Positions 12,697 to 52,546 of a stretch of 64,000 bases of DNA are shown in pieces. Under the pieces are notes generated by a model. The model was not told the origin of the DNA. It saw only the letters and a program-made list of their open reading frames with translations, and did not search any database. The position numbers and the translations under genes were made by a program. The stretch comes from Candidatus Paceibacter sp. Its GTDB lineage: Bacteria > Patescibacteriota > Minisyncoccia > UBA6257 > 02-FULL-45-10c. The stretch covers positions 35,961-99,960 of the forward strand of contig DYGE01000002.1 of the NCBI GenBank assembly GCA_020724845.1. The letters are read 5' to 3'. Position 1 is the stretch's first letter. Each line of letters starts with the position of its first letter.

Positions 12697-12906
12697 CACA
12701 GGAAAGCACCCTCTGTGCGGCAACTGACGGAATCCTGATTAGCTTGGATTCCGTAAGGAATAATCAGGATGAGTCGTAAGCGGAATTATCACCCCGTGTT
12801 GGAAGGTAGGCCGCTATGCTATAGCATAGCGGTCGTCGGAAACCTGAAGGTGTTCGAGATGGGGGTCGGGGTGAGAATCTGGGACGGTAAGAGGGTGCTT
12901 TCCTGT
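12697..12906 (+). repeat. Structured repeat, copy C: perfect 18-bp bounding IR, extra internal hairpin insertion
   Basis: cacaggaaagcaccctct (12697-12714) is the exact reverse complement of agagggtgctttcctgtg (12889-12906). The conserved 5' core is CTCTGTGCGGCAACTGACGGAATCCTGATT. The 3' part is replaced or expanded by a segment containing the perfect hairpin ccgctatgctatagcatagcgg. Confidence 0.85.
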
Positions 12907-12917
12907 GCAGCTAATAT

Positions 12918-19739: not shown

Positions 19740-19799
19740 ACGTTTTTATATTAAAGGTGTTGATCTGTATTATCAAGCTTGATTGATAGTTGATGAAAA

Positions 19800-20738: not shown

Positions 20739-20799
20739 TCGATTATAATAGTTTTATTAAGGCAAGAAGATAATATAAGTTGCCAAAAAATATTGATTT

Positions 20800-32659: not shown

Positions 32660-33832
32660 ATGGCCATTAAAAAGAAAACTGAAAAGCGCAAAGTTTGTTT
32701 TCCGATAATGAACCGGGTTCATTATGCTCGCAATAAGAAGCTTCTAGGGATGCTTAATAAGCATCCGCAAGTGGAGCTTCAGCTGGTTGTCGGGGGATCG
32801 GTGCTTTTGGACAAATACGGGGAGCGTTTCCTGCCGGATATGCAAAAATCCGGGTTCACAGTCAATGAAGCGCTTTACAATGTGATTGACGGGGGAAGCC
32901 ATATTACTATGGCGAAGACTGCCGGCCTGACCGCTTTGGAATTCTCCAACTCTTTGCATAAATTAGATCCGGACATCGTGGTGATCCGCGGCGATCGTTT
33001 TGAGCAATTGGCGATTGCTATGGTGGCAGCTTATTTGAATAAAACCATCGCTCACATTGAAGGTGGCGATCTGACCGGCACCATTGACGAAAGCGTCCGG
33101 CACGCCATTACCAAACTTGCCCATATTCATTTTGTTACCAATGAGGATGCCAAAAAACGGGTCATTCAGATGGGAGAAGATCCGAAGCAAGTTTTCAATG
33201 TTGGGTCTCCGGATGTGGAATTCGCGGCTTCGGTAGATAAGAAATTAGATGGCAGCGTGGTTAACGAGGTTGGAGTCGGCGAAGAAATAAACTTAAATAA
33301 GCCATTTCTGATGGTAATGCAGCACCCGGTCACTACTGAAAAAAATAATAAGGAAAATATGGAATTGACCTTGAAATCAATTGATGAGCTTAATATGCCG
33401 ACTATTTGGTTTTGGCCGAACAGCGATGCCGGCACCAGCGAGATGTCAAAAGTAATCCGCTACTATCGGGAGTCCGGAAAGCTGAAGAATAATCAGATTA
33501 GGTTTGTAACCGATCTCCTTCCTGAAGATTTTATAGCTCTTCTGCGAAGAGCCAGGGTGCTGATAGGCAATTCGTCCGCCGGAATAAAAGAATGCTCTTA
33601 TCTTGGCGTTCCAGTGGTGAACATTGGCAGTAGGCAGAATAACCGTCTGCGCGGACCGAATGTGATGGATGTGAGCCATAATGCGGCGGCAATTAAGCGG
33701 GCGGTTCACGAACAGCTGGCTCGAGGGAAGTATCCGAGTTCGGACTTATATTACAAGCCAAACTGCAGCAAAGAAATGGTTAATATCTTAAATAGAGTTA
33801 CTCTTCATGCCCAAAAAAAGTTCCACTCCTAA
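32660..33832 (+). CDS. neuC: UDP-N-acetylglucosamine 2-epimerase (hydrolysing), NeuC-type
   Basis: VCFPIMNRVHYARNKKLLGML..LQLVVGGS.. and ..HIEGGDLTGTIDESVRHAITKLAHIHFV.. are NeuC/Epimerase_2 motifs. Length 390 aa. Confidence 0.85.
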   Translation: MAIKKKTEKRKVCFPIMNRVHYARNKKLLGMLNKHPQVELQLVVGGSVLLDKYGERFLPDMQKSGFTVNEALYNVIDGGSHITMAKTAGLTALEFSNSLHKLDPDIVVIRGDRFEQLAIAMVAAYLNKTIAHIEGGDLTGTIDESVRHAITKLAHIHFVTNEDAKKRVIQMGEDPKQVFNVGSPDVEFAASVDKKLDGSVVNEVGVGEEINLNKPFLMVMQHPVTTEKNNKENMELTLKSIDELNMPTIWFWPNSDAGTSEMSKVIRYYRESGKLKNNQIRFVTDLLPEDFIALLRRARVLIGNSSAGIKECSYLGVPVVNIGSRQNNRLRGPNVMDVSHNAAAIKRAVHEQLARGKYPSSDLYYKPNCSKEMVNILNRVTLHAQKKFHS

Positions 33833-34589
33833 GATACTTGGCATAGTTACCGCCCGCGGAGGTTCAAAAGGGATTCCCGGTAAAAATATTAAAATTTTAT
33901 CCGGAAAGCCGTTGATTGCTTATACTATTGAGGCGGCTAAAGAGTCCGGCGTTTTGGATCGCTTGATTTTATCCACCGATGATCAAAAAATTGCCGGCGT
34001 GGCCGAGGAATACGGATGCGAAGTTCCTTTTTTGCGGCCGGCGGAAATTGCCCAAGATACGACGGAGCACTTGCCGGTCGTTCGGCATGCTGTCCAATGG
34101 CTGAAAGACAAGGAGGGATATTATCCGGACTATGTGATGATTCTGCAGCCGACTTCGCCGCTTCGCCAGCCGTTTCACATAAAAGAATCGGTTGAGCTGA
34201 TTATTAAATCCGGCGCGGATTCGGTCTTAAGCGTTTCGGAAATTCCAGAAAATTTCAGCCCCTACAAGGCGATGGTGGTTGATAGAAATAACTTGCTTAA
34301 GCTCTTCAGCGGCGACCCGGTTAAAAACCGCACCGCCAGGCGGCAGGATCTCGGTACCGCTTACTGGAGCATCGGCTCAATTTACCTTTTTAAAACCGAC
34401 CTGCTTTTTAATTCCGAAGATCCTAACTTTTATGGCGAAAAAGTGGCGCCTTATATAGTTGATAAAAAATACGTAGTTGACATTAATGTTCCGGCGGACT
34501 GGGAAACGGCCGAAAGGGCCCTGAATGCCATGAATAAAGACAATCCGAGCGTTACGAACAGTTCGGAAAATTCGGATAAAATTTCGTAG
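33807..34589 (+). CDS. neuA: N-acylneuraminate cytidylyltransferase (CMP-nonulosonate synthetase)
   Basis: ILGIVTARGGSKGIPGKNIKILSGKPLIAYTIEAAKESGVLDRLILSTDD and ..ILQPTSPLR.. are CTP_transf_3 motifs. Confidence 0.85.
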   Translation: MPKKSSTPKILGIVTARGGSKGIPGKNIKILSGKPLIAYTIEAAKESGVLDRLILSTDDQKIAGVAEEYGCEVPFLRPAEIAQDTTEHLPVVRHAVQWLKDKEGYYPDYVMILQPTSPLRQPFHIKESVELIIKSGADSVLSVSEIPENFSPYKAMVVDRNNLLKLFSGDPVKNRTARRQDLGTAYWSIGSIYLFKTDLLFNSEDPNFYGEKVAPYIVDKKYVVDINVPADWETAERALNAMNKDNPSVTNSSENSDKIS

Positions 34590-34603
34590 TATTCGTATTA
34601 TCT

Positions 34604-35575
34604 ATGGTTATATTAATTACCGAATCAAAAGATTATTCCGAAAAAGCATTGGCGACCTATCGATCGCTGGGCGAGGTCATTTTTTTTGACGCCTTGCCAA
34701 GCGCGAAGAAAAGCAATGCCTTAGCTAAGGCGGACGTTTTGGTGGTCCGATTGAATCATAAAATTGCCGGCGATTGGATGGAAAAAATGCCGAATCTCAA
34801 GGCGATAGCTACGCCTACCACCGGCTTGAATCATATTGATCTTGAGGAAGCCAAAAGACGCGGGGTTAGGGTGGTATCTTTGCGGGGGCGAACCGGTTTC
34901 CTGAAATATATACCCTCTACCGCGGAGGAAACTTTGGCGCTAATGCTTTCTTTGGTTAGGAATATCCCCTGGGCTTTTGAGGATGTCAAAAAAGGCAATT
35001 GGAATCGGGATAGGTGGCGTGGCCGCCAGCTTGTCGGGAAGACTCTCGGGATTCTTGGTTGCGGAAGATTGGGCAAAATAGTAGCCAAATATGCCAAGGC
35101 GTTAGGTATGGAAGTTGTTGGGTCCGATCCGAATGTGGAAGCGAAAGTCATGAAACGCTACGGGATTCGAAAAGTAAGCGCAGAAAAGCTTTTTAAGGAA
35201 TCCGATATCGTTAGCTTACATGTATTATTGACTGACGATACTTATAATCTTATTAAAGAAAAGCATTTGCGATCTATGAAGCCGAGCAGTTTCTTGATAA
35301 ATACCGCTCGCGCCGAATTAATAGAAAAGGGCGCCCTTCTGAAAGCGCTTAAAAATAAGTGGCTGGCGGGCGCGGCGGTTGACGTCATGTGGGATGAAAC
35401 CGGAAAGTCCGCCAAGCATCTGCGCGACAATCCTCTGCTGGAATACGCGAAATCAAATCAGAACCTTCTTATCGTTCCCCATATCGGCGGAGCGACTCAT
35501 GAAGCCATGCAGGTTACCGAAAATTTCATTGCTGATTTAGTAAAAAATTATTTCAAGAAGCATGGCTCAAGATAA
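34604..35575 (+). CDS. D-isomer-specific 2-hydroxyacid dehydrogenase family protein (NAD-binding)
   Basis: GKTLGILGCGRLGKIVAKYAKALGMEVVGSDP Rossmann motif and a ..VPHIGGATHEA.. catalytic-region motif. Confidence 0.75.
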   Translation: MVILITESKDYSEKALATYRSLGEVIFFDALPSAKKSNALAKADVLVVRLNHKIAGDWMEKMPNLKAIATPTTGLNHIDLEEAKRRGVRVVSLRGRTGFLKYIPSTAEETLALMLSLVRNIPWAFEDVKKGNWNRDRWRGRQLVGKTLGILGCGRLGKIVAKYAKALGMEVVGSDPNVEAKVMKRYGIRKVSAEKLFKESDIVSLHVLLTDDTYNLIKEKHLRSMKPSSFLINTARAELIEKGALLKALKNKWLAGAAVDVMWDETGKSAKHLRDNPLLEYAKSNQNLLIVPHIGGATHEAMQVTENFIADLVKNYFKKHGSR

Positions 35576-36719
35576 TTCTCAAGAGATTTGGAAGAAAATC
35601 AGTTCGCCGGTCAGCGAAGGCGTTTTTATTATTGCCGAAATTGGAAAGAATTTTATCCAGACCCGGGATGAGCGGCCGGTTGAGGAATACTTGGAGAACG
35701 CCAAGAAATTGGTTGATGAGGCCGCGAAAGCGGGCGCGGACGCGGTTAAGTTTCAAACTCACAATGTTGAGGATGAACAGCTCAATATCAACGTCACCTC
35801 TCCGCACTTTAAGGGCAGCGACCGCTATAATTGGGTGGCTAGAAACACCGGGGCTACTCCAGTGGAAGGCTTCTGGAAGCCCCTGAAAGAGCATTGCGAA
35901 AAACGAGGGATTGTTTTCTTTTCCACGCCGATGAGCCGGGGATCGGCAAAAATTTTAAACGAACAAATTGGCGTTAGTCTTTGGAAAATCGGATCCGGAG
36001 ATATTTTAGATTTTGTGATGCTGGATTATCTTAGGAATACCGGCAAGCCGATTATTCTTTCTTCCGGCATGAGCACTCTGGAAGAGGTGGAGAAAACGGT
36101 AAAATTCCTGCGGGAGAAAAACAATCAGATTGTTCTTCTTCATTGTGTTTCAAAATATCCCTGCCCGCCTGAAGATTTGCATCTGCGCACCATTGATTTT
36201 TATAAAGAAAAATTTGACATGCCGATTGGTTTTTCAGACCATTCGATCGGCGTTGATTCGGCTTTGGTGGCGGTGGCAATGGGCGCCACGGTGATTGAAA
36301 AGCATTTCTCTCTTTCCCGTGACCTATGGGGTTCTGACCACAAAGTTTCGCTGACTCCCGAAGAGCTGGCCGATCTGGTGGCGGGCGTCCGGGAATTGGA
36401 AAATAATCCGCGAAAAAGGCAAGAATTGTTGAATAGCGATTTCGCGAAAAGAGGCATGGGCCAAAAAGAGAAGGTGCTTCAGGAGGGGGAGGCGGCTTTT
36501 CGTCCGCTGTTCAGGAAATCCCTGATGGCCGGCCAAGACATTTCTGCCGGGACGGTTCTTGCGGAGGAAATGATATATGCCATGCGTCCCCAGCAATACG
36601 CCGGCGGGTTGCCGTCGGAAAATTACGAATCCGTTCTTGGGAAAAAAACTAAGCAAGATTTAAAAAAATACGACCCGATTACTGAACTAACGCTTAGGAG
36701 AACAGAATACGAACTCTGA
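35562..36719 (+). CDS. neuB: Second NeuB-family nonulosonate synthase with SAF domain
   Basis: FIIAEIGKNFIQTRDERPVEEYLENAKKLVDEAAKAGADAVKFQTH, ..LLHCVSKYPCP.. and a SAF-like C-terminus; 385 aa. A paralog of 20800..21867. Confidence 0.85.
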   Translation: MAQDNSQEIWKKISSPVSEGVFIIAEIGKNFIQTRDERPVEEYLENAKKLVDEAAKAGADAVKFQTHNVEDEQLNINVTSPHFKGSDRYNWVARNTGATPVEGFWKPLKEHCEKRGIVFFSTPMSRGSAKILNEQIGVSLWKIGSGDILDFVMLDYLRNTGKPIILSSGMSTLEEVEKTVKFLREKNNQIVLLHCVSKYPCPPEDLHLRTIDFYKEKFDMPIGFSDHSIGVDSALVAVAMGATVIEKHFSLSRDLWGSDHKVSLTPEELADLVAGVRELENNPRKRQELLNSDFAKRGMGQKEKVLQEGEAAFRPLFRKSLMAGQDISAGTVLAEEMIYAMRPQQYAGGLPSENYESVLGKKTKQDLKKYDPITELTLRRTEYEL

Positions 36720-37975: not shown

Positions 37976-40168
37976 ATGCATTCTACTTATAAAAAATTTG
38001 CCCTTGGCTTGGCAAAGGCCGGACTCTTTATAGTTCCATTTATACCCTTGTACGTATCAAGGTCTTTATTTTTTCCTTACATCACCGGCAAGGCTTTTAT
38101 TTTCAGGCTCGTCGTGGAGGCTGCCTTTGCGGCCTGGATATTTTTAGCGATTTTTTATAAGGAATATCGTCCGCGGAAATCATATCTTTTATTGGCAATC
38201 GGGATTTTTGTTTCAGTCGTAACTTTGGCAACCATTTTTGGGGTTAATCCTTGGCGTAGCTTTTGGTCAAACTTTGAGCGAATGGAGGGATTGCTGGCCC
38301 ACTTGCATCTTTTTGCCTACTTTTTAGTTCTGGGGCACGTTTTCAAAAGAAAAGATTGGCTGATTTTCCTTAACCTTTTTGTCATTGCCGGATTGGGCGA
38401 AAATATTTACGCGCTTATCCAGAAACTCGGATATCTACCTTCGCCGCAGGGCGGATTCCGGGTAGACGGCACGATTGGCAATCCGACTTATCTTTCCGCT
38501 TATTTAATTTTTGTCGCCGCTTTCTGTTTGTGGCTTTTTCTAGAGGCCAAGAATAAGTCTGCTAAGTATTTTTACGCTTTTGTCGGCCTATTTTCACTTC
38601 TTTCTATATACTTTACCGCCACCAGGGGAGCGGCTGTCGCTTTGGTTGCCGGCGGATTCTTGGCGGTATTGCTTTATCTGATTTTTATCAAGGCCGATAC
38701 GGAGCAGAAAAGGCTGCATAAAAAATTCGCCGTGGTTTTTTTGGCTCTTCTCATTTTGATCCCAGCCGCCATTAAGCTTTCCGCGGACACTTCTTTCGTC
38801 AAAAATAATGAGGTTCTTTCCCGATTCGCGTCTATTTCTTTTTCTGAAGCGAAAACCCGGTTCACTATTTGGGAAATGGGCTGGCAGGGGGTCAAAGAAA
38901 GGCCGGTTCTCGGTTGGGGGCCGGAGAATTATGCGGTAATTTTCGCCAAACATTATAACCCCTCGCTTTATTCTCAAGAGCCGTGGTTTGACCGTTCGCA
39001 CAACATAGTTTTTGACTGGCTCATTAATGCCGGCATTTTAGGACTCTTGTCTTATCTGGGAGTTCTATTGGCGGCTTTTTATATGATTTGGAAGAATTAT
39101 TTGAAAAATATATTTTCTGTTGAGCTTGCGATTTTATTCTCGGTTCTTCTATCGGTATATGTTTTGCAGAACATGTTTGTCTTTGATCAGTTGGCGACTT
39201 ATTTGAGCTATTTCGCGGTTTTGGCTTATATACACAACGCAGCCACGATGCAAAAGAGGGCGGAATTAGAAGGCGCGGCCGGGGCGGATGTTCAGAAGTT
39301 CGGGCCGTTAGTTGCGGCGGGCTTGCTGGCGCTTTTGGTATTGGTTGCCTATTTTGTTAATTTTCGGCCTTATGCCGCGAACAGGAATTTACTGGATGCA
39401 TTGAAGCTTCAGAACCAGGATTTGCCCGGAGCTTTTGAGAGTTATAAAAAAGCCATGTCTTACGATACCTTGGGCCGGCAAGAAGCCAGAGAACAGTTTG
39501 CCAGATTTGCCGTTGCTATCGGTTCCTTGCCGCAGGTAGGCGCCGAGTTAAAGGACGAGGCATTGAGAAGGGCGATTACGGAGGCCGAGAAAGGAGTGGC
39601 GGAAAACGAACTTGATCCGCGGCCTTACATATTTTTGGGAAGCGTTTATAGCCGGGTTGGCCTGCTGGATCCGGCGGCCCAGGTTCTGAATAAGGCTTTA
39701 GAACTTTCTCCCAAAAAGCAGCAGATCTATTTTGAACTGGCGGATGTTTATATCAAGAAAGAAGACTATGCGACGGCGGTCAGTATTTTGGAGCGGGCCT
39801 TTAATTTTGCCCCCCGATTTGATTTGGCAAGAATGAATTTGGCTGCCGCCTATATTCTCAACGGCCAGCAGGAAAAAGCGGATCAATTATTGATAGAAGC
39901 TTACGGCAGGACCGATGTTACGGAAAGCGTTTTAGTTCAGGTTTATTCCGCCAGGAAAGATTACCAGAGGTTGGCGGGCATCTGGGGGGCTTTCGTAGAG
40001 TCGGATCCAGCCAATACGCAATACATAAAGGGACTAACTGGCGCTTATCTTCTGCTTGGCGACGAGGCCAGCGCGATTAAGACTCTGGAAGAAGGCGCTT
40101 CTGCCAACCCTGCTTTTGCGCCGGAGGCAAGCGCTTTTATCAGGCAGATTAGGTCCGGCAATTATTAA
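37976..40168 (+). CDS. O-antigen ligase (Wzy_C)-like polytopic membrane domain fused to C-terminal TPR repeats
   Basis: The first ~430 aa are highly hydrophobic, with a large periplasmic-type loop. The last ~280 aa have TPR-like A/L/Y periodicity (..KALELSPKKQQIYFELADVYIKKEDYATAVSILERAFNF..). Confidence 0.55.
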   Translation: MHSTYKKFALGLAKAGLFIVPFIPLYVSRSLFFPYITGKAFIFRLVVEAAFAAWIFLAIFYKEYRPRKSYLLLAIGIFVSVVTLATIFGVNPWRSFWSNFERMEGLLAHLHLFAYFLVLGHVFKRKDWLIFLNLFVIAGLGENIYALIQKLGYLPSPQGGFRVDGTIGNPTYLSAYLIFVAAFCLWLFLEAKNKSAKYFYAFVGLFSLLSIYFTATRGAAVALVAGGFLAVLLYLIFIKADTEQKRLHKKFAVVFLALLILIPAAIKLSADTSFVKNNEVLSRFASISFSEAKTRFTIWEMGWQGVKERPVLGWGPENYAVIFAKHYNPSLYSQEPWFDRSHNIVFDWLINAGILGLLSYLGVLLAAFYMIWKNYLKNIFSVELAILFSVLLSVYVLQNMFVFDQLATYLSYFAVLAYIHNAATMQKRAELEGAAGADVQKFGPLVAAGLLALLVLVAYFVNFRPYAANRNLLDALKLQNQDLPGAFESYKKAMSYDTLGRQEAREQFARFAVAIGSLPQVGAELKDEALRRAITEAEKGVAENELDPRPYIFLGSVYSRVGLLDPAAQVLNKALELSPKKQQIYFELADVYIKKEDYATAVSILERAFNFAPRFDLARMNLAAAYILNGQQEKADQLLIEAYGRTDVTESVLVQVYSARKDYQRLAGIWGAFVESDPANTQYIKGLTGAYLLLGDEASAIKTLEEGASANPAFAPEASAFIRQIRSGNY

Positions 40169-43007: not shown

Positions 43008-43724
43008 ATGGATACTTCATCACAAGACAAGAAAAATCAGAGCAATATTTTTTTACCCGCCAGTATTCTAATTGCCGGCGTGCTTATTTCCGGATCGGTC
43101 ATTTATAGCACCGGCCTGAAGCAGGGAGGAGCCGGCGCCGTCCAGGAACCTGACTCCGCTGCAGAGGTTGTAGATGAATCAAAGCTGGCGCTAAATGACG
43201 AGGACGTCATTTTGGGCGATCCGAACGCTCCGGTGACTATTATTGAATACAGCGATTTCCAGTGTCCTTTTTGCGGGAGATTTTATTCCCAGTCAGAAGG
43301 CCAGATTAAAGAGAATTACATTAAAAACGGCCAGGTTAAATTTATTTATCGGCATTTTGCCTTTTTGGGTCCCGAGTCCAGGGCTGCCGCCGAGGCCGTG
43401 GAGTGCGCCAAAGATCAGGGAAATTTTTGGCAGTACCATGACCAGCTGTTTGACGAGGAGATTGCCGATGGCGCAGAGCATAATGGAAATTTGAACAGGG
43501 AATTATTTATGGAGCTTGCTGAAGCTGCAGATTTAGATTCTGCGGAGTTTGCCAGCTGTCTGGATGCCGGAAAATACTCCGAAAAGGTGGAAAGCGATTA
43601 TGCCGGGGCTCAAGCGCTTGGCGTTCGCGCTACTCCCACCATCTTTGTAAATGGAACCAAGGTTGAAGGGGCTTTGCCATTTAGTTACTTCCAGGCGCTG
43701 ATTGATTCCGAGTTGGCTAAGTAG
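43008..43724 (+). CDS. DsbA-like thiol:disulfide oxidoreductase (thioredoxin fold), membrane-anchored
   Basis: N-terminal TM segment, CPFC active site (DFQCPFCGRF) and a DsbA-like ..GVRATPTIFVNG.. motif. Confidence 0.8.
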   Translation: MDTSSQDKKNQSNIFLPASILIAGVLISGSVIYSTGLKQGGAGAVQEPDSAAEVVDESKLALNDEDVILGDPNAPVTIIEYSDFQCPFCGRFYSQSEGQIKENYIKNGQVKFIYRHFAFLGPESRAAAEAVECAKDQGNFWQYHDQLFDEEIADGAEHNGNLNRELFMELAEAADLDSAEFASCLDAGKYSEKVESDYAGAQALGVRATPTIFVNGTKVEGALPFSYFQALIDSELAK

Positions 43725-43769
43725 CTTTGTCTTGATATAATTTAATTAAATAATTAATTTTGTAGAAAT

Positions 43770-44012
43770 ATGGCGAACAAAGTAACAATTTATTCCACCC
43801 CTACTTGCGTGTATTGCAAAATGGCGAAAGATTTTTTTAAAAATAACAATGTTGAATATACGGAGCACAATGTCGCGGAGGATGACTCGGCCCGCGAAGA
43901 AATGGTCCACAAATCCCATCAGCTCGGCGTTCCGGTAATTGATATCAACGGCGAGGTATTTGTCGGTTTTAACAAAAGAGAAATCGCGAAGGCGCTGGGA
44001 GTAAGCGAGTAG
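43770..44012 (+). CDS. Glutaredoxin-like protein (NrdH/Grx family)
   Basis: 80 aa with YSTPTCVYCKMAKDFF (CxxC) and ..GVPVIDINGEVFVGFN... Confidence 0.75.
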   Translation: MANKVTIYSTPTCVYCKMAKDFFKNNNVEYTEHNVAEDDSAREEMVHKSHQLGVPVIDINGEVFVGFNKREIAKALGVSE

Positions 44013-44015
44013 GAT

Positions 44016-44942
44016 ATGTACGATTTGATTATTATTGGAGGAGGTCCGGCTGGCGCTGCCGCTGGAGTCTACGCGGCCAGGAAGAAAATAAAAACTTTAT
44101 TGATTGCCAAAGAATTTGGCGGGCAATCTTTAGTTTCTCCGGATGTTCAAAACTGGATCGGCACTAAATCTATTTCTGGACTGGAGCTAGCTCAAAATCT
44201 GGAAGAGCATGTTAGGAGCCAGGAGGGCATTGAGATTGTAGACGGCGATCTAGTTGAGGGGGTAGTTAAGTCCGATAGCGTATTCTCCATCAAAACGAAA
44301 GAAGGCAAGAGTTTCGAATCTAAAACTGTCTTAGTGGTTTCCGGCAGCCGTCGGCGCCGCCTGGGCATTCCTGGCGAAGACAAATTGGATGGCAAAGGCG
44401 TGGCCTGGTGCGCTACCTGTGATGCGCCTCTTTTTGGCGGGAAAACTGTGGCAGTGATCGGCGCCGGCAATGCTGGCCTGGAAGCGGTGCGCGATCTTTT
44501 TCCTTACGCGAGCAAGGTATATCTGATAAACCGAAGCGACAAAATTAAGGGAGACGCGGTCACCTTTGAAGAGATAAAAAAGAATCCGAAGTTGGAGATA
44601 ATCATGATGGCGGAAACTAAAGAAATTTTGGGAGATAAGATGGTTACCGGACTTAAGTATCTGGACGCGGAGAGCGGGCAGGAGAAAGAGTTGAAGCTGG
44701 ACGGTGTTTTTATAGAAATCGGATCTATCCCCAATGTTGAGTTTTTGGGAGACTTGGTTGAAAAGAATCAGTACAACGAAATTAAAGTTGATCACAAAAC
44801 CCAGCAAACCTCCCAGCCCGGTGTTTGGGCTGCTGGCGACGTTTCCGACGTTCTCTATAAGCAAAACAACATCTCCGCCGGCGATGCTATCAAGGCAGTG
44901 CTGAATATCCACGACTACTTAAATGGCGTAGAAAGAAAATAG
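44016..44942 (+). CDS. trxB: Thioredoxin-disulfide reductase
   Basis: IIGGGPAGAAAGVYAAR FAD motif, redox-active CATCDAPLF and ..VIGAGNAGLEA.. NADPH motif; 308 aa. Confidence 0.9.
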   Translation: MYDLIIIGGGPAGAAAGVYAARKKIKTLLIAKEFGGQSLVSPDVQNWIGTKSISGLELAQNLEEHVRSQEGIEIVDGDLVEGVVKSDSVFSIKTKEGKSFESKTVLVVSGSRRRRLGIPGEDKLDGKGVAWCATCDAPLFGGKTVAVIGAGNAGLEAVRDLFPYASKVYLINRSDKIKGDAVTFEEIKKNPKLEIIMMAETKEILGDKMVTGLKYLDAESGQEKELKLDGVFIEIGSIPNVEFLGDLVEKNQYNEIKVDHKTQQTSQPGVWAAGDVSDVLYKQNNISAGDAIKAVLNIHDYLNGVERK

Positions 44943-44989: not shown

Positions 44990-45035
44990 CCTATCCCCAC
45001 TTATTCCCGCGTACGCGGGAATAAGTGGGGATAGG
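44990..45035. repeat. 46-bp perfect palindrome (hairpin) downstream of trxB, member of a 2-copy palindrome family
   Basis: cctatccccacttattcccgcgtacgcgggaataagtggggatagg is exactly self-complementary. Its core is related to the palindrome at 45632. Confidence 0.85.
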
Positions 45036-45048
45036 AAAGGTCAATTAT

Positions 45049-45609
45049 ATGCGGCAAAAAATTGGAACAATTCAAAAGAAAATTTTACTGCTTTTACTTT
45101 TGATTCCGGCAACCGGCTTAGCTTATTCGCCTCGTCAGCGAGCAAAGATATTCCGAAAATTTGGAGAAGAATGGGATAAGATCAACGAGACCGCGCTTAG
45201 CCGAGCGATTAAAGGTTTATATGAAAACAGGATGATAGATTTTCAAGAACATAAAAGTGGAAAGATTAGGATTACTCTACTTAACGATGGGAAAAAGAAG
45301 GCGTTAGAATATGATTTGGAAAATTTAGCGTTGAAAAAACCTAAGCGCTGGGACGGAAAGTGGAGAATGATATTATTTGATATTCCTAATACCAAGAGTA
45401 AGGCGAGAGAAGCGATCCGCTATCATTTGAAGAGATTGGGTTTCTATCGATATCAGAAGAGCATATTCGTGCACCCTTACCCATGCAGGGACGAACTTGA
45501 TTTTGTGATTGAATTATACGGAATAAGGCTGCATGTGCGTTATATAGTCGCCGAGGAAATAGACAACGATATTCATCTTAGGAAAGTATTCAGAGCTTTA
45601 ATAGCTTAA
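45049..45609 (+). CDS. PaaX-family transcriptional regulator, short form
   Basis: N-terminal wHTH-like region and the PaaX-diagnostic ..RWDGKWRMILFDIP.. (compare E. coli PaaX AWDGKWLLLL). The ORF-track start at 45025 lies inside the palindrome, so the ATG at 45049 is preferred. Confidence 0.55.
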   Translation: MRQKIGTIQKKILLLLLLIPATGLAYSPRQRAKIFRKFGEEWDKINETALSRAIKGLYENRMIDFQEHKSGKIRITLLNDGKKKALEYDLENLALKKPKRWDGKWRMILFDIPNTKSKAREAIRYHLKRLGFYRYQKSIFVHPYPCRDELDFVIELYGIRLHVRYIVAEEIDNDIHLRKVFRALIA

Positions 45610-45631: not shown

Positions 45632-45681
45632 AAACATCCCTACCTATTCCTGCGTACGCAGGAATAGGTAGGGATGTTTTA
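45632..45681 (+). terminator. 50-bp perfect palindrome ending in a T-run; likely intrinsic terminator of the PaaX-like gene and second member of the palindrome family
   Basis: aaaacatccctacctattcctgcgtacgcaggaataggtagggatgtttt. It shares the core tattcc(c/t)gcgtacgc(g/a)ggaata with 44990..45035, with a compensatory c:g to t:a change. Confidence 0.6.
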
Positions 45682-45783: not shown

Positions 45784-45811
45784 TTGACTTTTTTGGGGGA
45801 TTGAATATAAT
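45784..45811 (+). promoter_or_regulatory. Sigma70-like promoter candidate (TTGACT-16-TATAAT)
   Basis: TTGACT at 45784-45789, a 16-nt spacer and TATAAT at 45806-45811, 27 bp upstream of the ORF at 45838. Confidence 0.5.
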
Positions 45812-45837: not shown

Positions 45838-46365
45838 ATGGAAAGTAATTTCAACCAAAATAACGGAGAGGGCGTTGTCTCTAAGAAACGCTTTTTTATT
45901 TTTGCGGGAGTTTTGGTCAGCGCGGTCGTTTTGCTGGCCAGCAGTTTGTATTGGTATCAGTGGTATAGCGACCCGGACCGCTTGGAACTGAAAGCTTTCC
46001 AAGACTATCAAAAACAGGTTGAGGAAGCTTATAAAAACGATACTTATGGAGGAGCGACCCCGGAAGAAACTTTGCGTCTTTTTATAGAAGCACTGAAAGC
46101 AGAAGACATTGAGCTTGCGAGCAAATATTTTGCCTTGGATGACAATTTGAGTAGGTATAAGTGGGTGGAGTTTTTGGAGAATATTAAGCAGAGGGAGTTG
46201 TTGCAGGTTATGGCGAATGATATCGAATCCAAGGCTGTATCTGTCGGGGCCTCTTATGAAGGAAACTATGCTTTCGAAATCTATAATAATGACGGGACGG
46301 TCGCTGTTACGATTGAGTTAACTAAGAATCCTTATTCCAATATTTGGAAAGTAGAAAGTCTATAG
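45838..46365 (+). CDS. Hypothetical membrane-anchored protein
   Basis: 175 aa with an N-terminal TM helix (FIFAGVLVSAVVLLASSLYWY) and no recognisable catalytic motif. Confidence 0.5.
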   Translation: MESNFNQNNGEGVVSKKRFFIFAGVLVSAVVLLASSLYWYQWYSDPDRLELKAFQDYQKQVEEAYKNDTYGGATPEETLRLFIEALKAEDIELASKYFALDDNLSRYKWVEFLENIKQRELLQVMANDIESKAVSVGASYEGNYAFEIYNNDGTVAVTIELTKNPYSNIWKVESL

Positions 46366-46375
46366 ATTAGGAAAT

Positions 46376-49300
46376 ATGAGGAAAATAGTAATTCTATCCA
46401 TTTTAATATTTCCTCTGAATGTCTTTGCTTACAGCGTGGGGACTCACGCTTTTTTAACTCAAGAACTGGTTGAATTTTATAATCAGCAATTTCCAGAGCG
46501 GCAGATCCCGGAAGAATTTGAAGATGAAATCATTGAGGGCTCTAGAAGAGAAGACGACTTAGTCCGTTGGATGAATCATTTTTATGACCCGGTCAACAAC
46601 CGCGGGCTTACCGCCGTTCCAGGTAATTGGCTTAGTTCTAAAGAGTGGTCCAGGAGCGCGGATGAGCAGGTTTCCGCTTTGTATAACCCGATTGTCAACA
46701 CCACTATCGCGGATTTACTGGCGGTTACTAATCCGATGGCTTTGCGTGAGACGGATTTCACTTGGGAGCGGGCCATTCAGGATTACGTCAAAGGGGACAG
46801 GGAAAGGGCCTTTCGCGCCCTCGGCCAAGTGCTTCATTTGATTGAAGACGCTTCGGTGCCGGACCACACCCGCAATGATCCGCACCCGGCTTTTGACGAC
46901 CACGACGCCTTGGGCACGGGGAGTCCCTACGAAATTTGGACTAAGAATTTTAATTTGAGCAGTCCGGATAATAATTTGCCGAACCGGCTTTCCGGTAAAA
47001 AACCGGTAATGCTTGGAAATCTGGAAGAATACTTTGATGGCCTGGCGACTTATTCCAATAATAATTTCTACAGTAAAGACACTATTGGTATGGGTGAATA
47101 TTCCTCTCCAGAGCCAACGTATATTTGGAGAGAAGAAAAAATATTCTATGGTTTTAGGAAGGATGAAGATGGTAATTATTACCATTTAGTTAGTTATAAA
47201 AATGATCCCAAAGATGTTTTATGGGCACAAAAGGGAAACTTAGATTTAAGAGATAAGCAGGGCGATAGAGTGCTAAACGACTACTGGAACCGTCTTTCGG
47301 TGAAATCCATCCAATATGGAGCAGGAGTTGTCAATTTATTTTTTAAAGAGGTTGAAAAAGCCCAAAAAGATCCTAATTTTGTAATTGAGGAACCGAAATC
47401 TTTATTTGCTCAAGCGGTAGAGGTTGTGGGCGGGTTTTTCAAAAATTTATTTCAGAATAATCAGGAAGAAGATTCCGGACTCAATTTGGTCGCAGAGATT
47501 GATTTGAACGATCAGGAAAATTCAGCTTCGCCGGAGAGGAGCGATAACCTTGCGCGGCCAGATGATCTTGTTGAAGAGCTTGTATCAGAGGAAGCCCTCG
47601 CCGATGAGCCAGAGGCGCAAGAATCGGAAGAAGCGTTAGACGAGGAATTGGAAGAGGCGCCAGAAGATGTTAATCAAGAAACTTTGGAGTTGGAAGAAGG
47701 GGCAGAAGCTGAAGAGGTCTTAGATCCGCCAACTCAAGAAAATTCAGCTGATAATTTTCAGGTATGCACTTTCGCGACTAGTCAATCCGCCAGCAGAAAT
47801 AAATTACTCATAAATGAAGTTGCCTGGGCCGGCACCGCCGAAAGCTCTTCAAATGAATGGATTGAGTTAAAAAATATTTCCGGCGGCGAGCTGGACATTT
47901 CCAACTGGCAGCTGCTGGATGAGGCTGAACAGATTAAGGTGACTTTCCCGTCTGGCACGAAAGTGGCGAGCGGGGGTTTTGTTCTCCTTGAAAGGACGGA
48001 TGATAATTCAGTCCCAGGCGTGGCGGCGGATATTATTTATACCGGAGCGCTTTCCAATAGCAACGAAGGCCTGCGCCTTTTTGATCCTAGCTGTCAGCTT
48101 ATTGACGAAGTTTCGGCAGATTCATCCTGGCCGGCCGGAGATAGCAGTACCAGGAGGACGATGGAGCGCTCTGCTGATCTAACCTGGCACACTTATAATG
48201 GCAGCGGCGAGAGCGGAATTTTTGGGACCCCGAAGAAAGAAAACAGCCAGTTGCCGACTACCAGCGGAGGATCTCCGTCTCCGGCGGAGAACGCGCAAGC
48301 GAGCGCCAATTTGAATATTCTTATCTCGGAAGCGCAAATAACCGGATCCGGCGGATCAAAAGACGAGTTTGTGGAATTATACAATCCCAACTCGGCTTCG
48401 GTAGATTTGACCGGCTGGTACGTAAAAAGGAAAAGCTCCAGCGGCAACGAATACAGCTTGGTTTCCGCCGGCAATCTTTCCGGGAAAACTATCCCGGCCA
48501 AGGGTTATTTCTTGCTGGCCCATCCGGATTACAGCGGTTCTGTCGCCGCTGATGTTACCTGGCCGTCTTCCTACGCGGTCTCGGCGGACAACACGGTCAT
48601 TTTATATAAATCAGACGGTTCGGTGTCCGATAAATTAGGATTCGGTTCGGCCGCCGACTATGAAACCAGCCCGTATTCGGATAATCCCGCTTCCGGCCAA
48701 ACGCTTTCCAGGGAATCTGAAAACGACACCGATAATAACGCCGCTGATTTTGAGCTGACCACGCCTTCTCCGAAAAATTCCAGCACTTCTGGCGGATTTC
48801 TCGCCATTCAGGCGGAAGCTGATTCTTCCAATCCGGCCAATCACCCGGTTATCAGCGAATTGTTTATCAATATGGCCGGTTCGGACGACCAAGAATTTAT
48901 TGAGATTTATAATCCGACCAGCCAGCAGGTTAGTTTGTCCGGATGGTCCCTGCAATACTTGAGCGGGGGAGCCAGCACTATGGCGCAAATCGCCAAGAAA
49001 AATTTTACTGACGGCGCCAGCGTCCAGCCGTTAAGTTACTATCTGATTGGAGTCGGTGGTTACAGCAGCAGTACTGCGGCCGACATGACTTGGAGCCAAT
49101 CATTGAATAACACCGGCGCCACGGTGTTTTTGGTTGCCAGTTCCTCCGGGCTGGCGTCCTTTGATAGCGATGAGATTATAGATAAAGTCGCCTACGGTTC
49201 CGCTTCCGGCGGGGAATTGCGCTCGGAAGGCGCCGCGGCTCTATTGCCGCCGGAAGGGCAGAGTTTAGAGCGAAAAGCTAATACTGATAATTCTTGCTTA

Positions 49301-51088
49301 TCTATTTTAGATGAGGAGAATAAATTTTCCGGCAATGCTTGCGATCGGGATAATAATTCCAAAGATTGGGAAGCGCAAAGCTTGCCTAATCCGCAGAACA
49401 GCCAAAGCTTTCCGGAGCCCCGGACAGCTCCGACGGCGCCTGACGATTTCAGCGCGGCATACGACTCACCGAATATGATTGTGAATTTGAGCTGGTCCCC
49501 GTCTCAAGATTACGCCAGCAGCTCTTCCGCCGTAAATTATGTTTTGAGTTATGCGACTTCCACCAACTCTCTTATCCAACTGGCGGAGGTAACGGCCACG
49601 ACTACGTATAGCGCCAGCATTAAAGAGGTCGGCATCGGCCACGCCTTTTCCATTACTGCTAAAGACAGAGATGGCTTGCCTTCCGCTTCCAGCAGCTCCG
49701 TCAGCTTAAATGTTCCTAGTCTGTATTCCAATTTTTCCTTCTATAAGGACACCCGCGCCGCTTCCAGCACTAAGTATTTGTTAGATTTCTACTATAATAA
49801 CTATCCTTTTGCGCCGGATGTGTACGATAACGGCGATGCTTGGAAAATTTTGGTGTTTTATTTAAACAGCGACGCTCCGGACGAGGTGGAATTGAACGCC
49901 GCCGGCAATTGGAATTTGGAGAATCCAGGCGTTGCTCTAGGGGTTGCTTATGGAAATTGCGCCAGCGGAAATGAAAACCGCTACTCTTTGATTTTGCCGG
50001 ACACTTCCGCGCGCTGCAGCAATGGCGGAGGCGTGGAGAATGAGGCGATGCATTGGGATAACCTGGAAGACCTTCATTTATTAGTTGAGCTCTCAACGAC
50101 TACCGCGGACGCCACTTTCACGAATCAGGATTTTGTGACGGTCGGCGCTTACTCGCTGCAAAGTTCCGGCGGCGGAGATCAAAAATTCAAATTGGCGGCT
50201 TTGGATAGGACTAAGCGTTATTTCCAGAGCGATACTCCCGCGCATCAGTCTCCGGATATGCCGGATAATTTCGAATTAAGCTTCAATCAGAGCAGCTCTC
50301 TGCTTCGGATCATCTGGGACAGGTCTCGCGACGGAGATACTTTGGATTCGCTGATAGATTATGAAATTAAATACACAACCGGAGATCTTGATAGCGCCAG
50401 CTGGATTGACGCTCCGGAAGTCAGCCCCGACTCCGGTGAGAATTCGGAGATAGGCGGACGGCCGTTTACTAAAATTTCCGTTGAGTCCGATACGCTTTAT
50501 AACCTCGCTGTCAGGGCCAAAGATGATTTTGGAAATTACTCCGTGGCGACCACTACCTCTTACCAAGTTCCGGAAATAGCTCCGCCTTACGGAATTTCCA
50601 ATATTCAATGGGGGTATATAAATTCTTCTTCCACTATTGAAATATCTTTTAGCGCCAATGCCTATCCGTTTATGACCGCCGGCAATTCCAGCGCCATTCT
50701 CTTTTTCTTGAATCAGTCGCCGCCAAGCAGTTATTCTTTTTCAAATTCCAGCGACCGCTGGGCGATTGGCGGCTCAAATAAGGTATTGAAGCTCAAATAC
50801 AGCACTTGCCAATACGGAGTAGATGAATTGCTGGGCGGCTTACTGATGCACAACAGCGACCAATGCCCTAATGGCGGCAGCGGACTAAAGAAAAACGCGG
50901 TCAGAAATGATTTGGCCAGCGGCCAGACCAGCTTCGGAGTTGAGGTGATTGGCGTTTTGGAAAACGAAGGATCGGCTTCTCATACCTTTAGCGCCGATGA
51001 CTACCTGACCATGGGCTTTTACGAGCTCCAAGGGAATTCTTTCCAGGCGGTCTCAAGCCATAACGAGAAAATTTATTTTTCGGAATAG
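46376..51088 (+). CDS. Giant secreted protein: N-terminal zinc-dependent phospholipase C (Zn_dep_PLPC/P1-nuclease-fold) domain, three lamin-tail domains (LTD), FN3-like modules
   Basis: Signal peptide MRKIVILSILIFPLNVFAYSV. The PLC-like motifs are ..GTHAFLT.., HFYDPVNNRG (compare B. cereus PLC HFYDPDNGK) and LGQVLHLIEDASVPDHTRND (compare LGLSLHYLGDVNQPMHA). The three LTD repeats begin LLINEVAWAGT..EWIELKNISGGELDISNWQL, ILISEAQITGSGGSKDEFVELYNPNSASVDLTGWYV and VISELFINMAGSDDQEFIEIYNPTSQQVSLSGWSL. Ser/Thr-rich FN3-like regions follow. Confidence 0.7.
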   Translation: MRKIVILSILIFPLNVFAYSVGTHAFLTQELVEFYNQQFPERQIPEEFEDEIIEGSRREDDLVRWMNHFYDPVNNRGLTAVPGNWLSSKEWSRSADEQVSALYNPIVNTTIADLLAVTNPMALRETDFTWERAIQDYVKGDRERAFRALGQVLHLIEDASVPDHTRNDPHPAFDDHDALGTGSPYEIWTKNFNLSSPDNNLPNRLSGKKPVMLGNLEEYFDGLATYSNNNFYSKDTIGMGEYSSPEPTYIWREEKIFYGFRKDEDGNYYHLVSYKNDPKDVLWAQKGNLDLRDKQGDRVLNDYWNRLSVKSIQYGAGVVNLFFKEVEKAQKDPNFVIEEPKSLFAQAVEVVGGFFKNLFQNNQEEDSGLNLVAEIDLNDQENSASPERSDNLARPDDLVEELVSEEALADEPEAQESEEALDEELEEAPEDVNQETLELEEGAEAEEVLDPPTQENSADNFQVCTFATSQSASRNKLLINEVAWAGTAESSSNEWIELKNISGGELDISNWQLLDEAEQIKVTFPSGTKVASGGFVLLERTDDNSVPGVAADIIYTGALSNSNEGLRLFDPSCQLIDEVSADSSWPAGDSSTRRTMERSADLTWHTYNGSGESGIFGTPKKENSQLPTTSGGSPSPAENAQASANLNILISEAQITGSGGSKDEFVELYNPNSASVDLTGWYVKRKSSSGNEYSLVSAGNLSGKTIPAKGYFLLAHPDYSGSVAADVTWPSSYAVSADNTVILYKSDGSVSDKLGFGSAADYETSPYSDNPASGQTLSRESENDTDNNAADFELTTPSPKNSSTSGGFLAIQAEADSSNPANHPVISELFINMAGSDDQEFIEIYNPTSQQVSLSGWSLQYLSGGASTMAQIAKKNFTDGASVQPLSYYLIGVGGYSSSTAADMTWSQSLNNTGATVFLVASSSGLASFDSDEIIDKVAYGSASGGELRSEGAAALLPPEGQSLERKANTDNSCLSILDEENKFSGNACDRDNNSKDWEAQSLPNPQNSQSFPEPRTAPTAPDDFSAAYDSPNMIVNLSWSPSQDYASSSSAVNYVLSYATSTNSLIQLAEVTATTTYSASIKEVGIGHAFSITAKDRDGLPSASSSSVSLNVPSLYSNFSFYKDTRAASSTKYLLDFYYNNYPFAPDVYDNGDAWKILVFYLNSDAPDEVELNAAGNWNLENPGVALGVAYGNCASGNENRYSLILPDTSARCSNGGGVENEAMHWDNLEDLHLLVELSTTTADATFTNQDFVTVGAYSLQSSGGGDQKFKLAALDRTKRYFQSDTPAHQSPDMPDNFELSFNQSSSLLRIIWDRSRDGDTLDSLIDYEIKYTTGDLDSASWIDAPEVSPDSGENSEIGGRPFTKISVESDTLYNLAVRAKDDFGNYSVATTTSYQVPEIAPPYGISNIQWGYINSSSTIEISFSANAYPFMTAGNSSAILFFLNQSPPSSYSFSNSSDRWAIGGSNKVLKLKYSTCQYGVDELLGGLLMHNSDQCPNGGSGLKKNAVRNDLASGQTSFGVEVIGVLENEGSASHTFSADDYLTMGFYELQGNSFQAVSSHNEKIYFSE

Positions 51089-51169: not shown

Positions 51170-51652
51170 ATGAGCGGTTGGCTGATGGCGTTTCTGATCC
51201 TGGCAGGCCTTGCGCTGCTTACCGGGACACTCTGGTTTGTCGGAAGAGTCTATCATGATGTCACTGAAGTAACTTCAAGCGGCATTCATATAGTAAGATG
51301 GACCGGCGTCCTGACATTTATGGAATATGTCTCTAACAAAGAAAGGGGGTATGAGATTTTCCGAGAACAATCTCTTTTGGCCGCTTTGGTTCTGAAGCGT
51401 TCGGCGCCTCCTTCCAAAGACCCGCCTTGGCAGATCTCCGTCCAAGATTTTCAAGCCGGATCCCAATTGGAGATTGCTCCGTTCTCAAAGGGCAAGAATG
51501 ACCAGGTTTCAGTAGTGCGCAGAACTGAAGGCTTTCTTATGGCCACTGCAGAGCCGAGAAGCAAGTATAAAGATTTGATTACGGCAGCTAATCAGCTGGA
51601 TGTGGAAATTAAAAGGAGATTTAATCCCATCATCGAAGATGCCCTGAAGTAA
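51170..51652 (+). CDS. Hypothetical membrane-anchored protein
   Basis: 160 aa with an N-terminal TM (WLMAFLILAGLALLTGTLWFVG) and no motif recognised. Confidence 0.45.
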   Translation: MSGWLMAFLILAGLALLTGTLWFVGRVYHDVTEVTSSGIHIVRWTGVLTFMEYVSNKERGYEIFREQSLLAALVLKRSAPPSKDPPWQISVQDFQAGSQLEIAPFSKGKNDQVSVVRRTEGFLMATAEPRSKYKDLITAANQLDVEIKRRFNPIIEDALK

Positions 51653-51654
51653 AC

Positions 51655-51681
51655 AAAGCAGCGCTTTAGCGCTGCTTTTTT
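51655..51681. terminator. Bidirectional rho-independent terminator between convergent genes
   Basis: aagcagcgc-ttta-gcgctgctt hairpin flanked by an A-run (5') and a T-run (3'), between the + gene ending at 51652 and the - gene ending at 51680. Confidence 0.7.
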
Positions 51682-52546
51682 AATAGTTGAGAGGACAGTT
51701 TACAATCAAACTCTCCACCATTTTTGCCTGCTTGTCTTTCGCGGCTTCAGAGCCGCTCTCTCTATTTTGTATTCTCTTCTGAACCTCGTCTCCCTCAATG
51801 CCGTGTTTCAGCGATTTAATGCTTAGTTCCCGGTGGATGCCACCCTCCCGGATATCCAGCCGCTTGCTTATAAAATCTAAAATTTTAACAAATGATCCTG
51901 ACTCCAGCATTTGCTTGTGTTGATCGCTTGCTGGAACCCCAAGTTTGTTTAAGGCCAGATGCTCATCTTCATGGGCTATCACCCCATAGAAATAAGCTTC
52001 CTGTTCCAGGTAGCTGAAACTGATAAAGTTGCGCCGATAATATCTTTCATATGACGCAAGCCATTCGTAGATTTCTAGTGGATAGATTTCCGCTCGGTAA
52101 TGACCGAAGAAAGCGCGCCCGAAAACTTTTCCATCGTCATTCTCTATCCTCTTTTTGTCTTTTTTACACTGTTTGATTTTCTTTTTATCTTGATATTGGC
52201 TGCAATCCTCTCTTAGAAATCGCCATTCCGCCTCAACGTATTCCTTGTAAATTTCATCATAATCTCTCCCGAGCATTTCTTCCGCTTTTTCTTCAAGTTC
52301 TTTTCTGTCTTCCAGGCAGTCCTCTTTACGCGAGCCTTTATATCCGGAACAGTCTTTTCTGACTAATTTTCTGTAAATATCTTCTTCTAAGAAGGCAATT
52401 TCCGGCATTGGCGTTTTTGGGTCAAGCCTATGCACCCTGACCACTTCTTGCCAGATGTCCCTAATCAGCGGTTCGTCAATTTCCTTTTCCCAGCATCCTG
52501 CTAGCGGCAAAAGGAGTATCAGAAGTAATAGTTTTTTAAGGTTCAA
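51680..52546 (-). CDS. Putative lipoprotein with HExxH zinc-metallopeptidase-like motif
   Basis: Lipobox-like signal MNLKKLLLLILLLPLAGCW, an HEDEH (HExxH) motif at ..GVIAHEDEHLALN.., and Cys/Glu/Lys-rich repeats. Confidence 0.4.
   Translation of the reverse strand: MNLKKLLLLILLLPLAGCWEKEIDEPLIRDIWQEVVRVHRLDPKTPMPEIAFLEEDIYRKLVRKDCSGYKGSRKEDCLEDRKELEEKAEEMLGRDYDEIYKEYVEAEWRFLREDCSQYQDKKKIKQCKKDKKRIENDDGKVFGRAFFGHYRAEIYPLEIYEWLASYERYYRRNFISFSYLEQEAYFYGVIAHEDEHLALNKLGVPASDQHKQMLESGSFVKILDFISKRLDIREGGIHRELSIKSLKHGIEGDEVQKRIQNRESGSEAAKDKQAKMVESLIVNCPLNY

Follow-up and report, generated by a model that had tools for sequence, protein, structure and literature searches.

Within a 64,000-nucleotide stretch of the Candidatus Paceibacter sp. 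contig DYGE01000002.1 (hereafter the window), a gene for a 1570-residue protein and a gene for a 175-residue protein directly upstream of it form a pair that is conserved among Patescibacteria. The N-terminal head of the large protein is, in our structural models, a catalytic fold of the phospholipase C (PLC) branch of the Zn-PLC/P1 nuclease superfamily, and its candidate metal-holding residues are under strict selection. The best-supported reading of the sequence is an exported phosphodiesterase of the PLC branch that depends on two or three metal ions. The head is very probably competent for catalysis, and we assign a probability of about 0.5 to a phospholipid being the substrate. The locus as a whole is best explained as a two-gene operon conserved across Parcubacteria-type Patescibacteria, and the bacterium that carries it is tiny, groundwater-type and probably symbiotic.

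Fold of the catalytic head

A first-pass annotation of the window, made from the DNA letters alone, had read a Zn-PLC/P1-nuclease signature into the N-terminal region from the motifs GTHAFLT, HFYDPVNNRG and LHLIEDASVPDHTRND, which we located at residues 22–28, 68–77 and 153–168, respectively. Our analyses retain the Zn-PLC fold and assign it to the PLC branch, with a score below the threshold of the Pfam family PF00882, and they depart from the P1-nuclease side of that claim.

The search for relatives of the head yielded 81 proteins, all from metagenome-assembled genomes (MAGs) of Patescibacteria, and 49 of them, with 27–53% identity to the query, were aligned. All 81 carry the label 'hypothetical', and no precomputed Pfam domain covers the head in any of them. 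As a single query in phmmer, the head found only noise among the PDB sequences. The profile of the 49-sequence family found Bacillus cereus PC-PLC (1ah7) with an E-value of 5.9e-5 and Listeria PlcB with 1.5e-3 in an hmmsearch of the PDB sequences, and hhalign aligned this profile with 1ah7 at 93.7% probability (E 2e-7). The corresponding hhalign value for P1 nuclease was 2.8% over 19 columns, on the H-x3-D-x3-P-x-H stretch. Weak matches to PF00882 (E<0.1, the best 2.5e-4) occur in 27 of the 49 relatives, with no competing family. Six full-length relatives were scanned as well, and all stay below the cut-off.

An AlphaFold2 model of the head, built on the alignment of the 49 relatives, has a predicted local distance difference test (pLDDT) score of 87.3 and a predicted template-modelling score of 0.88. 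Foldseek matched this model to 16 PDB chains with E-values from 1.8e-4 to 1.2e-2 and a probability of 1.00, all of them Zn-PLCs (alpha-toxin, PC-PLC and PlcB); the next match had an E-value of 1.5. S1/P1 nucleases were absent from the 77 Foldseek matches and from the search of the PDB with the family profile at E<=10. Together with the hhalign value, these absences led us to reject membership of the head in the P1-nuclease family (PF02265). The concern that the head might match a non-catalytic fold was examined by the same structure prediction and search, which returned the catalytic Zn-PLC fold only. Compared with the 245-residue PC-PLC, the model adds a three-stranded beta insertion (residues 249–274) and a long C-terminal helix (residues 298–331).

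Conservation of the candidate metal-binding residues

The hidden Markov model alignment places HFYDP on His69, LHLIEDASVPDH on His118, Asp122 and His128, and SPYE on Glu146 of PC-PLC. The equivalent residues of the window protein (H68, H154, D158, H164 and E186) are identical in 49 of 49 aligned sequences, as are G55, E59, D60, W91, G150, P162, R166, D168 and H170; T23 and D71 are nearly invariant. The spacing G55-x4-D60 reproduces the G50-x4-D55 of PLCs, and Asn167, present in 45 of 49, corresponds to Asn134 of PLCs, unlike the situation in P1 nuclease. The candidate counterparts of Trp1, His14 and Asp55, located in a region outside the HMMER and hhalign alignments, are Tyr19 (47/49), H24 (48/49) and D60 (49/49).

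In PLC and P1 nuclease, the mature Trp1 binds a metal through its free amino group, and in the Zn-PLCs the carbonyl of Trp1 takes part as well. The family studied here has a Thr-His 4–6 residues past its N-terminal Tyr, a pattern that is consistent with the Tyr serving in the same ligand role as Trp1, with a P1-like spacing to the His. The family hallmark is P-D-H-T-R-N-D-P-H, and the invariant His170, which lies between H164 and E186, could complete the third metal site. Conservation of the zinc ligands, which the first-pass annotation had formulated as W1/H/D/H, stands for the positions, which are invariant in the 49 relatives, with two corrections: Tyr takes the place of Trp, and the position of His142 of PC-PLC is unconserved. 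A degenerate site had also been envisaged; the other ligand positions are invariant despite the low identities within the family, and the structural claim of the annotation thus withstood the refuting conditions set for it. The most distant relatives (P0078–P0081) carry a long insertion between the equivalents of D60 and H68, and they may bridge the family of the Candidate Phyla Radiation (CPR) to the classical PLCs.

The head resembles the Zn-PLCs (PF00882: PC-PLC 1ah7; alpha-toxin 2wxu and 1ca1; Listeria PlcB 8cqm) in secretion by a signal peptide, in the helical catalytic fold, in HFYDP, H-x3-D-x3-P-x-H-x2-N, S-x-Y-E with its Glu ligand and G-x4-D, and in a predicted aromatic mature N-terminus. 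It differs from them in having Tyr rather than Trp at the predicted position +1, with the His 5 residues later instead of 13, in a shorter D60–H68 loop, in the unconserved His142 position, and in the extra invariant residues E59, R166, D168, H170 and W91. While the Zn-PLCs are Firmicutes proteins that stand alone or carry a PLAT-like domain, the family of the window occurs in Patescibacteria, is fused to an acidic linker, lamin-tail domains (LTDs), FN3-like and unknown modules, and is accompanied by an NTF2-like partner gene (79/80 loci). The S1/P1 nucleases (1ak0, 5fb9) share with the head the superfamily, the logic of a trinuclear site, the aromatic-x4-His and the H-x3-D-x3-P-x-H; however, they give no significant profile or fold match, and the FYDP and Asn167 of the head are PLC-like. 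By its sub-threshold score and one unconserved defining ligand position, the head falls formally outside PF00882. The most apt description is that of a novel variant within the Zn-PLC/P1 superfamily, spread through the Patescibacteria and combined with LTD, FN3-like and unknown modules and an NTF2-like partner.

A conserved gene for a predicted membrane partner upstream

The neighbourhoods of 80 loci encoding PLC-like relatives were compared. In 78 of them at E<=1e-5, and in 79 at E<=1e-3, the gene immediately upstream of the PLC-like gene is a homolog of the partner gene. The partner family, with the signature motif NDTYGGATPEETLxLFIEALKxxDIELASKYF, has no Pfam domain in any of 68 homologs. 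The AlphaFold2 model of the partner (pLDDT 92.7) displays a transmembrane helix, a long helix, and a cone made of three helices and a four-stranded sheet. The best Foldseek matches are proteins of the ketosteroid-isomerase/SnoaL fold (E 0.011, probability 0.96); the N-terminal domain of PBP2a is also matched, and the MlaC-type phospholipid binder 2qgu is matched weakly (E 0.29). The family profile of the partner matched designed NTF2 proteins at an E-value of 9e-4 (about 1e-3). These scores are modest, and they are consistent with an NTF2-like alpha+beta cone. Such a cone is common to the partner and to the known NTF2-like modules (the SnoaL/ketosteroid-isomerase fold, the PBP2a N-terminal domain, MlaC-type proteins and Imm-NTF2), and the partner, as modelled, is membrane-anchored and outward-facing like the PBP2a N-terminal domain. 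By sequence, in contrast to those modules, it belongs to no Pfam family.

The two genes are coupled at their junction. Measured from the partner stop codon, the large gene has its first ATG in frame at a median distance of -1 nt, and an exact overlap of 22 nt is found in 39 of 79 loci (for example L001, 5965–5990, and L003, L006, L008, L009 and L013). The nucleotides of this junction, GT-ATG-GAA-AAT-AGA-AAG, serve twice: they encode the conserved partner C-terminus V-W-K-I-E-S-L-stop and, in a second frame, the conserved M-E-N-R-K of the enzyme, so that many family members start with MENRK. At the junction of the window (46340–46378), the overlap has broken down: TTG stands in place of the ATG, the second frame is closed, and the large gene starts 10 nt past the partner stop with an AGGA of its own.

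Domain organization and export

The open reading frame (ORF) listing contains a single plus-strand ORF with an ATG start at 46376–51088, as first annotated. A signal peptide had also been proposed, and the N-terminus, MRKIVILSILIFPLNVFA followed by YS, does have a basic n-region and a hydrophobic core, together with the cleavage motif V-x-A. Residues 1–18 are the sole hydrophobic, transmembrane-like window of the 1570-residue protein. Across the alignment, the junction of the signal peptide takes the form [V/A/T]-x-[A/G/S], with Tyr as the next residue in 47 of 49 sequences and Phe in one, and cleavage would thus be expected before Tyr19. The whole protein lacks a C-terminal anchor, hydrophobic segment or sortase/sorting motif, and its description as a tethered protein finds no support without an anchor or sorting motif. 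Moreover, if a free N-terminal Tyr serves as a metal ligand, the signal peptide must come off, and retention at the surface would have to be non-covalent, possibly via the partner.

Behind the head, the acidic linker is, from its composition, probably a disordered spacer. The three LTDs of the first-pass annotation are certain by their Pfam match (PF00932, E 2.3e-44, 150.7 bits against a cut-off of 34.3, in three stretches). The NCBIfam ExeM model also matches the window protein, through the LTD alone, and this match was rejected as evidence for a nuclease. Shewanella ExeM and the window protein are alike in having a signal peptide, one or more LTDs and a metal-dependent phosphoesterase. However, ExeM has an EEP-type catalytic domain, OB folds, a C-terminal anchor and one LTD (PMC6085458), while the window protein has a PLC-type head, three LTDs and no anchor.

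The last 555 residues (1016–1570) form a tandem duplication of an FN3-like module and a module of about 170 residues, here called X (BLASTP E 2e-10, 23% identity). The Ser/Thr-rich FN3-like repeats described earlier are real, and they are more structured than described, an FN3-like and an unknown module being duplicated together. In the window protein itself, residues 1016–1115 and 1291–1400 have no fn3 match in Pfam, only Ig_RIMBP2 at E 0.035–0.16. We assign them to FN3 because homologous segments in relatives match Pfam fn3 (PF00041): equivalently placed segments do so in P0109 (26.5 bits against 25) and in P0083, and the P0083 segment was matched directly to the first FN3-like module. The X module was found in 66 fetched family members with a nearly invariant Cys pair, and its 24-sequence profile found no PDB sequence at E<=10 and no meaningful Pfam match. 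The extracellular modules contain four Cys pairs, in keeping with export, and the head has no cysteine.

Size and spread of the family

A HMMER search over 1.84 billion representatives returned 5,772 proteins at E<=1e-10, of which 1,879 reach E<=1e-30, and the best 150 of these matches are mostly 1,200–1,700 residues long. A relative, recognized by the motif P[DQ]HTRND[PAG]H, is encoded in at least 469 genomes, counting one genome per GTDB species. Among the matches listed are genomes of Harrison-, Wolfe-, Jorgensen-, Colwell-, Brenner-, Yanofsky- and Sungiibacteria, Paceibacterota and the 'Parcubacteria group', and the family is Parcubacteria-wide. The closest of the listed matches, in a Candidatus Harrisonbacteria MAG, has 60% identity, and its whole neighbourhood is syntenic with the window. 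The six full-length members that were scanned share one plan, in which the head is followed by two to four LTDs, these by PKD or FN3, and a C-terminal region comes last. An exact look-up returned no record of the large window protein, and one of the partner (P0215, on a 103.9-kb contig). The sources that we checked give no protein name for the family or its full-length relatives, and the literature that we searched holds no description of it.

Most of the head relatives in the databases bear the annotation 'partial' and stop at the edge of their contig, even where that contig measures 30–70 kb. The repetitive LTD/FN3 region may thus be a frequent cause of breaks in metagenome assembly, which would leave full-length members under-represented.

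Genomic context

The features of the locus are collected in Table 1. The promoter, which was found by a consensus scan, is likely that of the two-gene operon. The large gene had been placed right after a PaaX-like regulator and a strong promoter; in fact, the gene for the 175-residue partner intervenes, and the promoter-like site precedes that gene. The hairpin upstream (ACATCCCTACCTATTCCTGC/GCAGGAATAGGTAGGGATGT) is flanked by T-runs on both sides, is unusually long for an intrinsic terminator, and probably separates the transcription of the PaaX-like gene from that of the cassette.

Table 1. Features of the two-gene locus in the window (aa, residue numbers in the encoded protein)
Feature	Position	Strand	Description
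Hairpin	45634..45677		Perfect 20-bp stem, 4-nt loop; 25 nt past the PaaX-like gene
Sigma-70-like promoter (likely)	45784..45811	+	TTGACT-16-TATAAT, 11/12; the partner gene starts 27 nt downstream
Partner gene, 175 aa	45838..46365	+	Predicted N-terminal transmembrane helix aa ~16–44, long helix, extracytoplasmic NTF2/SnoaL-like alpha+beta cone
Putative ribosome-binding site	46369..46372	+	AGGA, within the 10-nt gap before ATG 46376
Large ORF, 1570 aa	46376..51088	+	ATG start; signal peptide, PLC-like head, acidic linker, three LTDs, (FN3-like + X module) twice
Signal peptide, aa 1–18	46376..46429	+	Predicted cut between VFA and Y, giving Tyr19 as mature N-terminus; junction conserved in the family
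Catalytic head, aa 19–335	46430..47380	+	Predicted Zn-PLC/P1 superfamily fold; candidate metal ligands
Candidate metal ligands			Y19 (N-terminus), H24, D60, H68, H154, D158, H164, E186
Family-specific invariant residues of the head			E59, R166, D168, H170
Acidic low-complexity linker, aa 346–470	47411..47785	+	125 residues, 39 D+E against 3 K+R
Three LTDs, aa ~471–622, 640–800, 824–1005	47786..49390	+	PF00932; boundaries by self-comparison
FN3-like module a, aa 1016–1115, and X module 1, aa 1116–1290	49421..50245	+	Cys pair C1195/C1214
FN3-like module b, aa 1291–1400, and X module 2, aa 1401–1570	50246..51085	+	Cys pair C1478/C1497

The PaaX-like gene was rejected as a functional partner: it adjoins 12 of the 80 loci, sometimes on the opposite strand, and in the window the hairpin lies between. 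Its 194-residue product (45025–45609) has only the central Cas2-like PaaX_M domain (E 7e-21), with a weak match to CRISPR_Cas2, and a leucine-rich hydrophobic stretch near the N-terminus. Farther upstream (43008–44942), the window encodes a DsbA-like thioredoxin, a glutaredoxin-like protein and a thioredoxin reductase, and such genes recur in 9–19 of the 80 relatives (L001, L013, L015, L021 and others). Glutaredoxin and thioredoxin reductase genes flank 18–19 of the 80 loci, and SpoU flanks 25.

Two genes lie just downstream of the cassette, at 51170–51652 on the plus strand and 51680–52546 on the minus strand. The minus-strand gene encodes a 288-residue lipoprotein-like product with a lipobox-like LLLPLAGC and no Pfam match, which is kept only in the two closest genomes (L001 and L021), and the plus-strand gene encodes a 160-residue membrane protein that has homologs in none of the 80 loci.

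Roughly positions 1–43000 of the window are occupied by a large surface-glycan cluster. It contains two pairs of NeuB and CMP-sugar cytidylyltransferase genes (19029–21867 and 33807–36719), a Wzy_C-TPR fusion (37976–40168), a Wzx/MurJ-like flippase, an initiating transferase of the Bac_transf type, a TagF-like glycerophosphotransferase (12769–14292) and a transketolase-like gene (24365–26263). Three ORFs of the cluster, of about 440–450 residues (17665–19029, 26290–27612 and 30021–31349) are alike at the N-terminus (…FI(S/T)SFHP.I.RNILAT…) and are apparent paralogs.

Discussion

We propose the following mechanism for the gene pair. The large product would be exported and its signal peptide cut before Tyr19, leaving the head exposed. 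If PC-PLC and alpha-toxin are taken as the guide, the free N-terminal residue, H24, D60, H68, H154, D158, H164 and E186, possibly with H170 or D168, would hold two or three metal ions, and the metal cluster would activate a water molecule for the cut of a phosphodiester. The most likely substrate would be the glycerol-phosphate bond of a phospholipid in the membrane or membrane debris of another cell, and the products would be diacylglycerol and a phospho-head-group. The acidic linker of about 125 residues, the three LTDs, the two FN3-like modules and the two disulfide-containing unknown modules would together make up a long stalk or adhesion arm. The 175-residue partner would reside in the producer's membrane with its NTF2-like cone facing outward and would be made in step with the enzyme, which it may dock, restrain for self-protection, or relieve of its hydrophobic product.

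We favour a lipid substrate because the head is closer kin to the PLCs than to the nucleases, because of FYDP and Asn167, and because of the lipid biology of the CPR. Most CPR bacteria cannot synthesize the lipids of their membranes and are believed to acquire these from neighbouring cells (PMC7242380), and a secreted phospholipase has been proposed to serve lipid acquisition in Vampirococcus (PMC8080830). An effector or lipid-scavenging role for the window protein, as suggested by the first-pass annotation, would follow from this biology by analogy.

Several observations weigh against this main reading. The active site of the superfamily is common to lipid and nucleic-acid substrates, and the fold therefore leaves the substrate unfixed. 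With PF00882, whose gathering threshold is 26.8 bits, the full protein scores 15.1 and the isolated head 18.3, and the TM-scores to the PLCs are modest, at 0.40–0.47 on the query and 0.57–0.65 on the target. The mature N-terminus would be Tyr, not Trp. PC-PLC has its third-site His142 four residues ahead of the Glu ligand. The window protein has Gly182 at this place, and the family G, D, A or K, so the third metal site may have been rebuilt or lost. A distant member, P0080, has the canonical His ('HSWYE') in addition to His170; hence H170 need not be a replacement ligand. A membrane-insertion domain like the C-terminal domain of alpha-toxin was not found in the window protein, and no lipid-uptake or diacylglycerol-kinase gene was seen beside the cassette. 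Finally, LTDs in bacteria are found together with nucleases and with phosphoesterases of other kinds, and no function has been settled for them (PMC6085458).

Another possibility would be that the same chemistry acts on a non-lipid substrate. The protein would then be an extracellular nuclease, or a nucleotide or teichoic-acid phosphodiesterase, that scavenges nucleotides or phosphate, while its LTDs bind DNA or cell-wall polymers. We consider this unlikely. The PLC and S1/P1 families have a common metal site and share the H-x3-D-x3-P-x-H motif, the arrangement Tyr19-x4-His24 is that of P1 nuclease (Trp1-x4-His6) and not that of PC-PLC (Trp1-x12-His14), and the invariant Arg166 by the site would suit a polyanion. 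LTDs occur with nucleases such as ExeM, and CPR bacteria also lack nucleotide synthesis. However, the profile and fold comparisons described above set the head beside PC-PLC and found no S1/P1 nuclease, and both FYDP and Asn167 are of the PLC type.

The strict coupling of the two genes, with its translational overlap, could alternatively reflect a toxin-immunity pair, in which a PLC-like weapon is directed against the membranes of hosts or competitors, and the NTF2-like partner is the cognate inhibitor that guards the membrane of the producer. The model places the partner in the same compartment as the enzyme, and the phospholipase effectors that are known come with immunity proteins, either periplasmic ones or lipoproteins. 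NTF2-fold immunity proteins are also said to have been described, by Zhang et al. in 2012, as a class in polymorphic toxin systems. This explanation appears improbable to us, in that the pair is one orthologous family with partly conserved flanks and behaves like core genes rather than a variable, sporadic module. The catalytic domain stands at the N-terminus and shows no polymorphism, the neighbourhood has no genes of a secretion system, and the fold match of the partner is generic (E 0.011).

It is very improbable that the head survives only as a relic without catalysis, on a protein that is nothing but a surface adhesin or fibre: the score below the Pfam threshold, the missing canonical His142, the mass of Ig-like modules and the frequency of giant surface proteins in CPR bacteria (PMC8080830) would fit it, but the other ligand positions and the surrounding polar residues are invariant at 27–53% identity, and by motif in at least 469 genomes, in the pattern of an active site.

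Returning to the phosphodiesterase of the PLC branch, a more specific and doubtful proposal would be that the gene pair is a lipid-acquisition device of the Parcubacteria, in which the head reaches the host envelope on its stalk and strips the head-groups from host phospholipids and the cone of the partner captures diacylglycerol or intact lipid for the membrane of the symbiont. If this were true, the pair would represent an enzyme-acceptor pair of a new kind, and not a toxin-immunity system.

To conclude, the family described here extends the PLC/P1 superfamily by a Tyr-1 variant with what may be a rearranged third metal site, and it offers two clonable candidates, the head of about 320 residues, which lacks cysteines, and the 130-residue soluble domain of the partner. 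The source of lipids in the CPR/Patescibacteria is an open question (PMC7242380; PMC8080830), and a widespread secreted family with a PLC-type active site bears on this question. If the head is a PLC, a widespread gene pair would be linked to the harvesting of host lipids; if it is instead a nuclease or a teichoicase, it would still be a main extracellular scavenging enzyme of the group.

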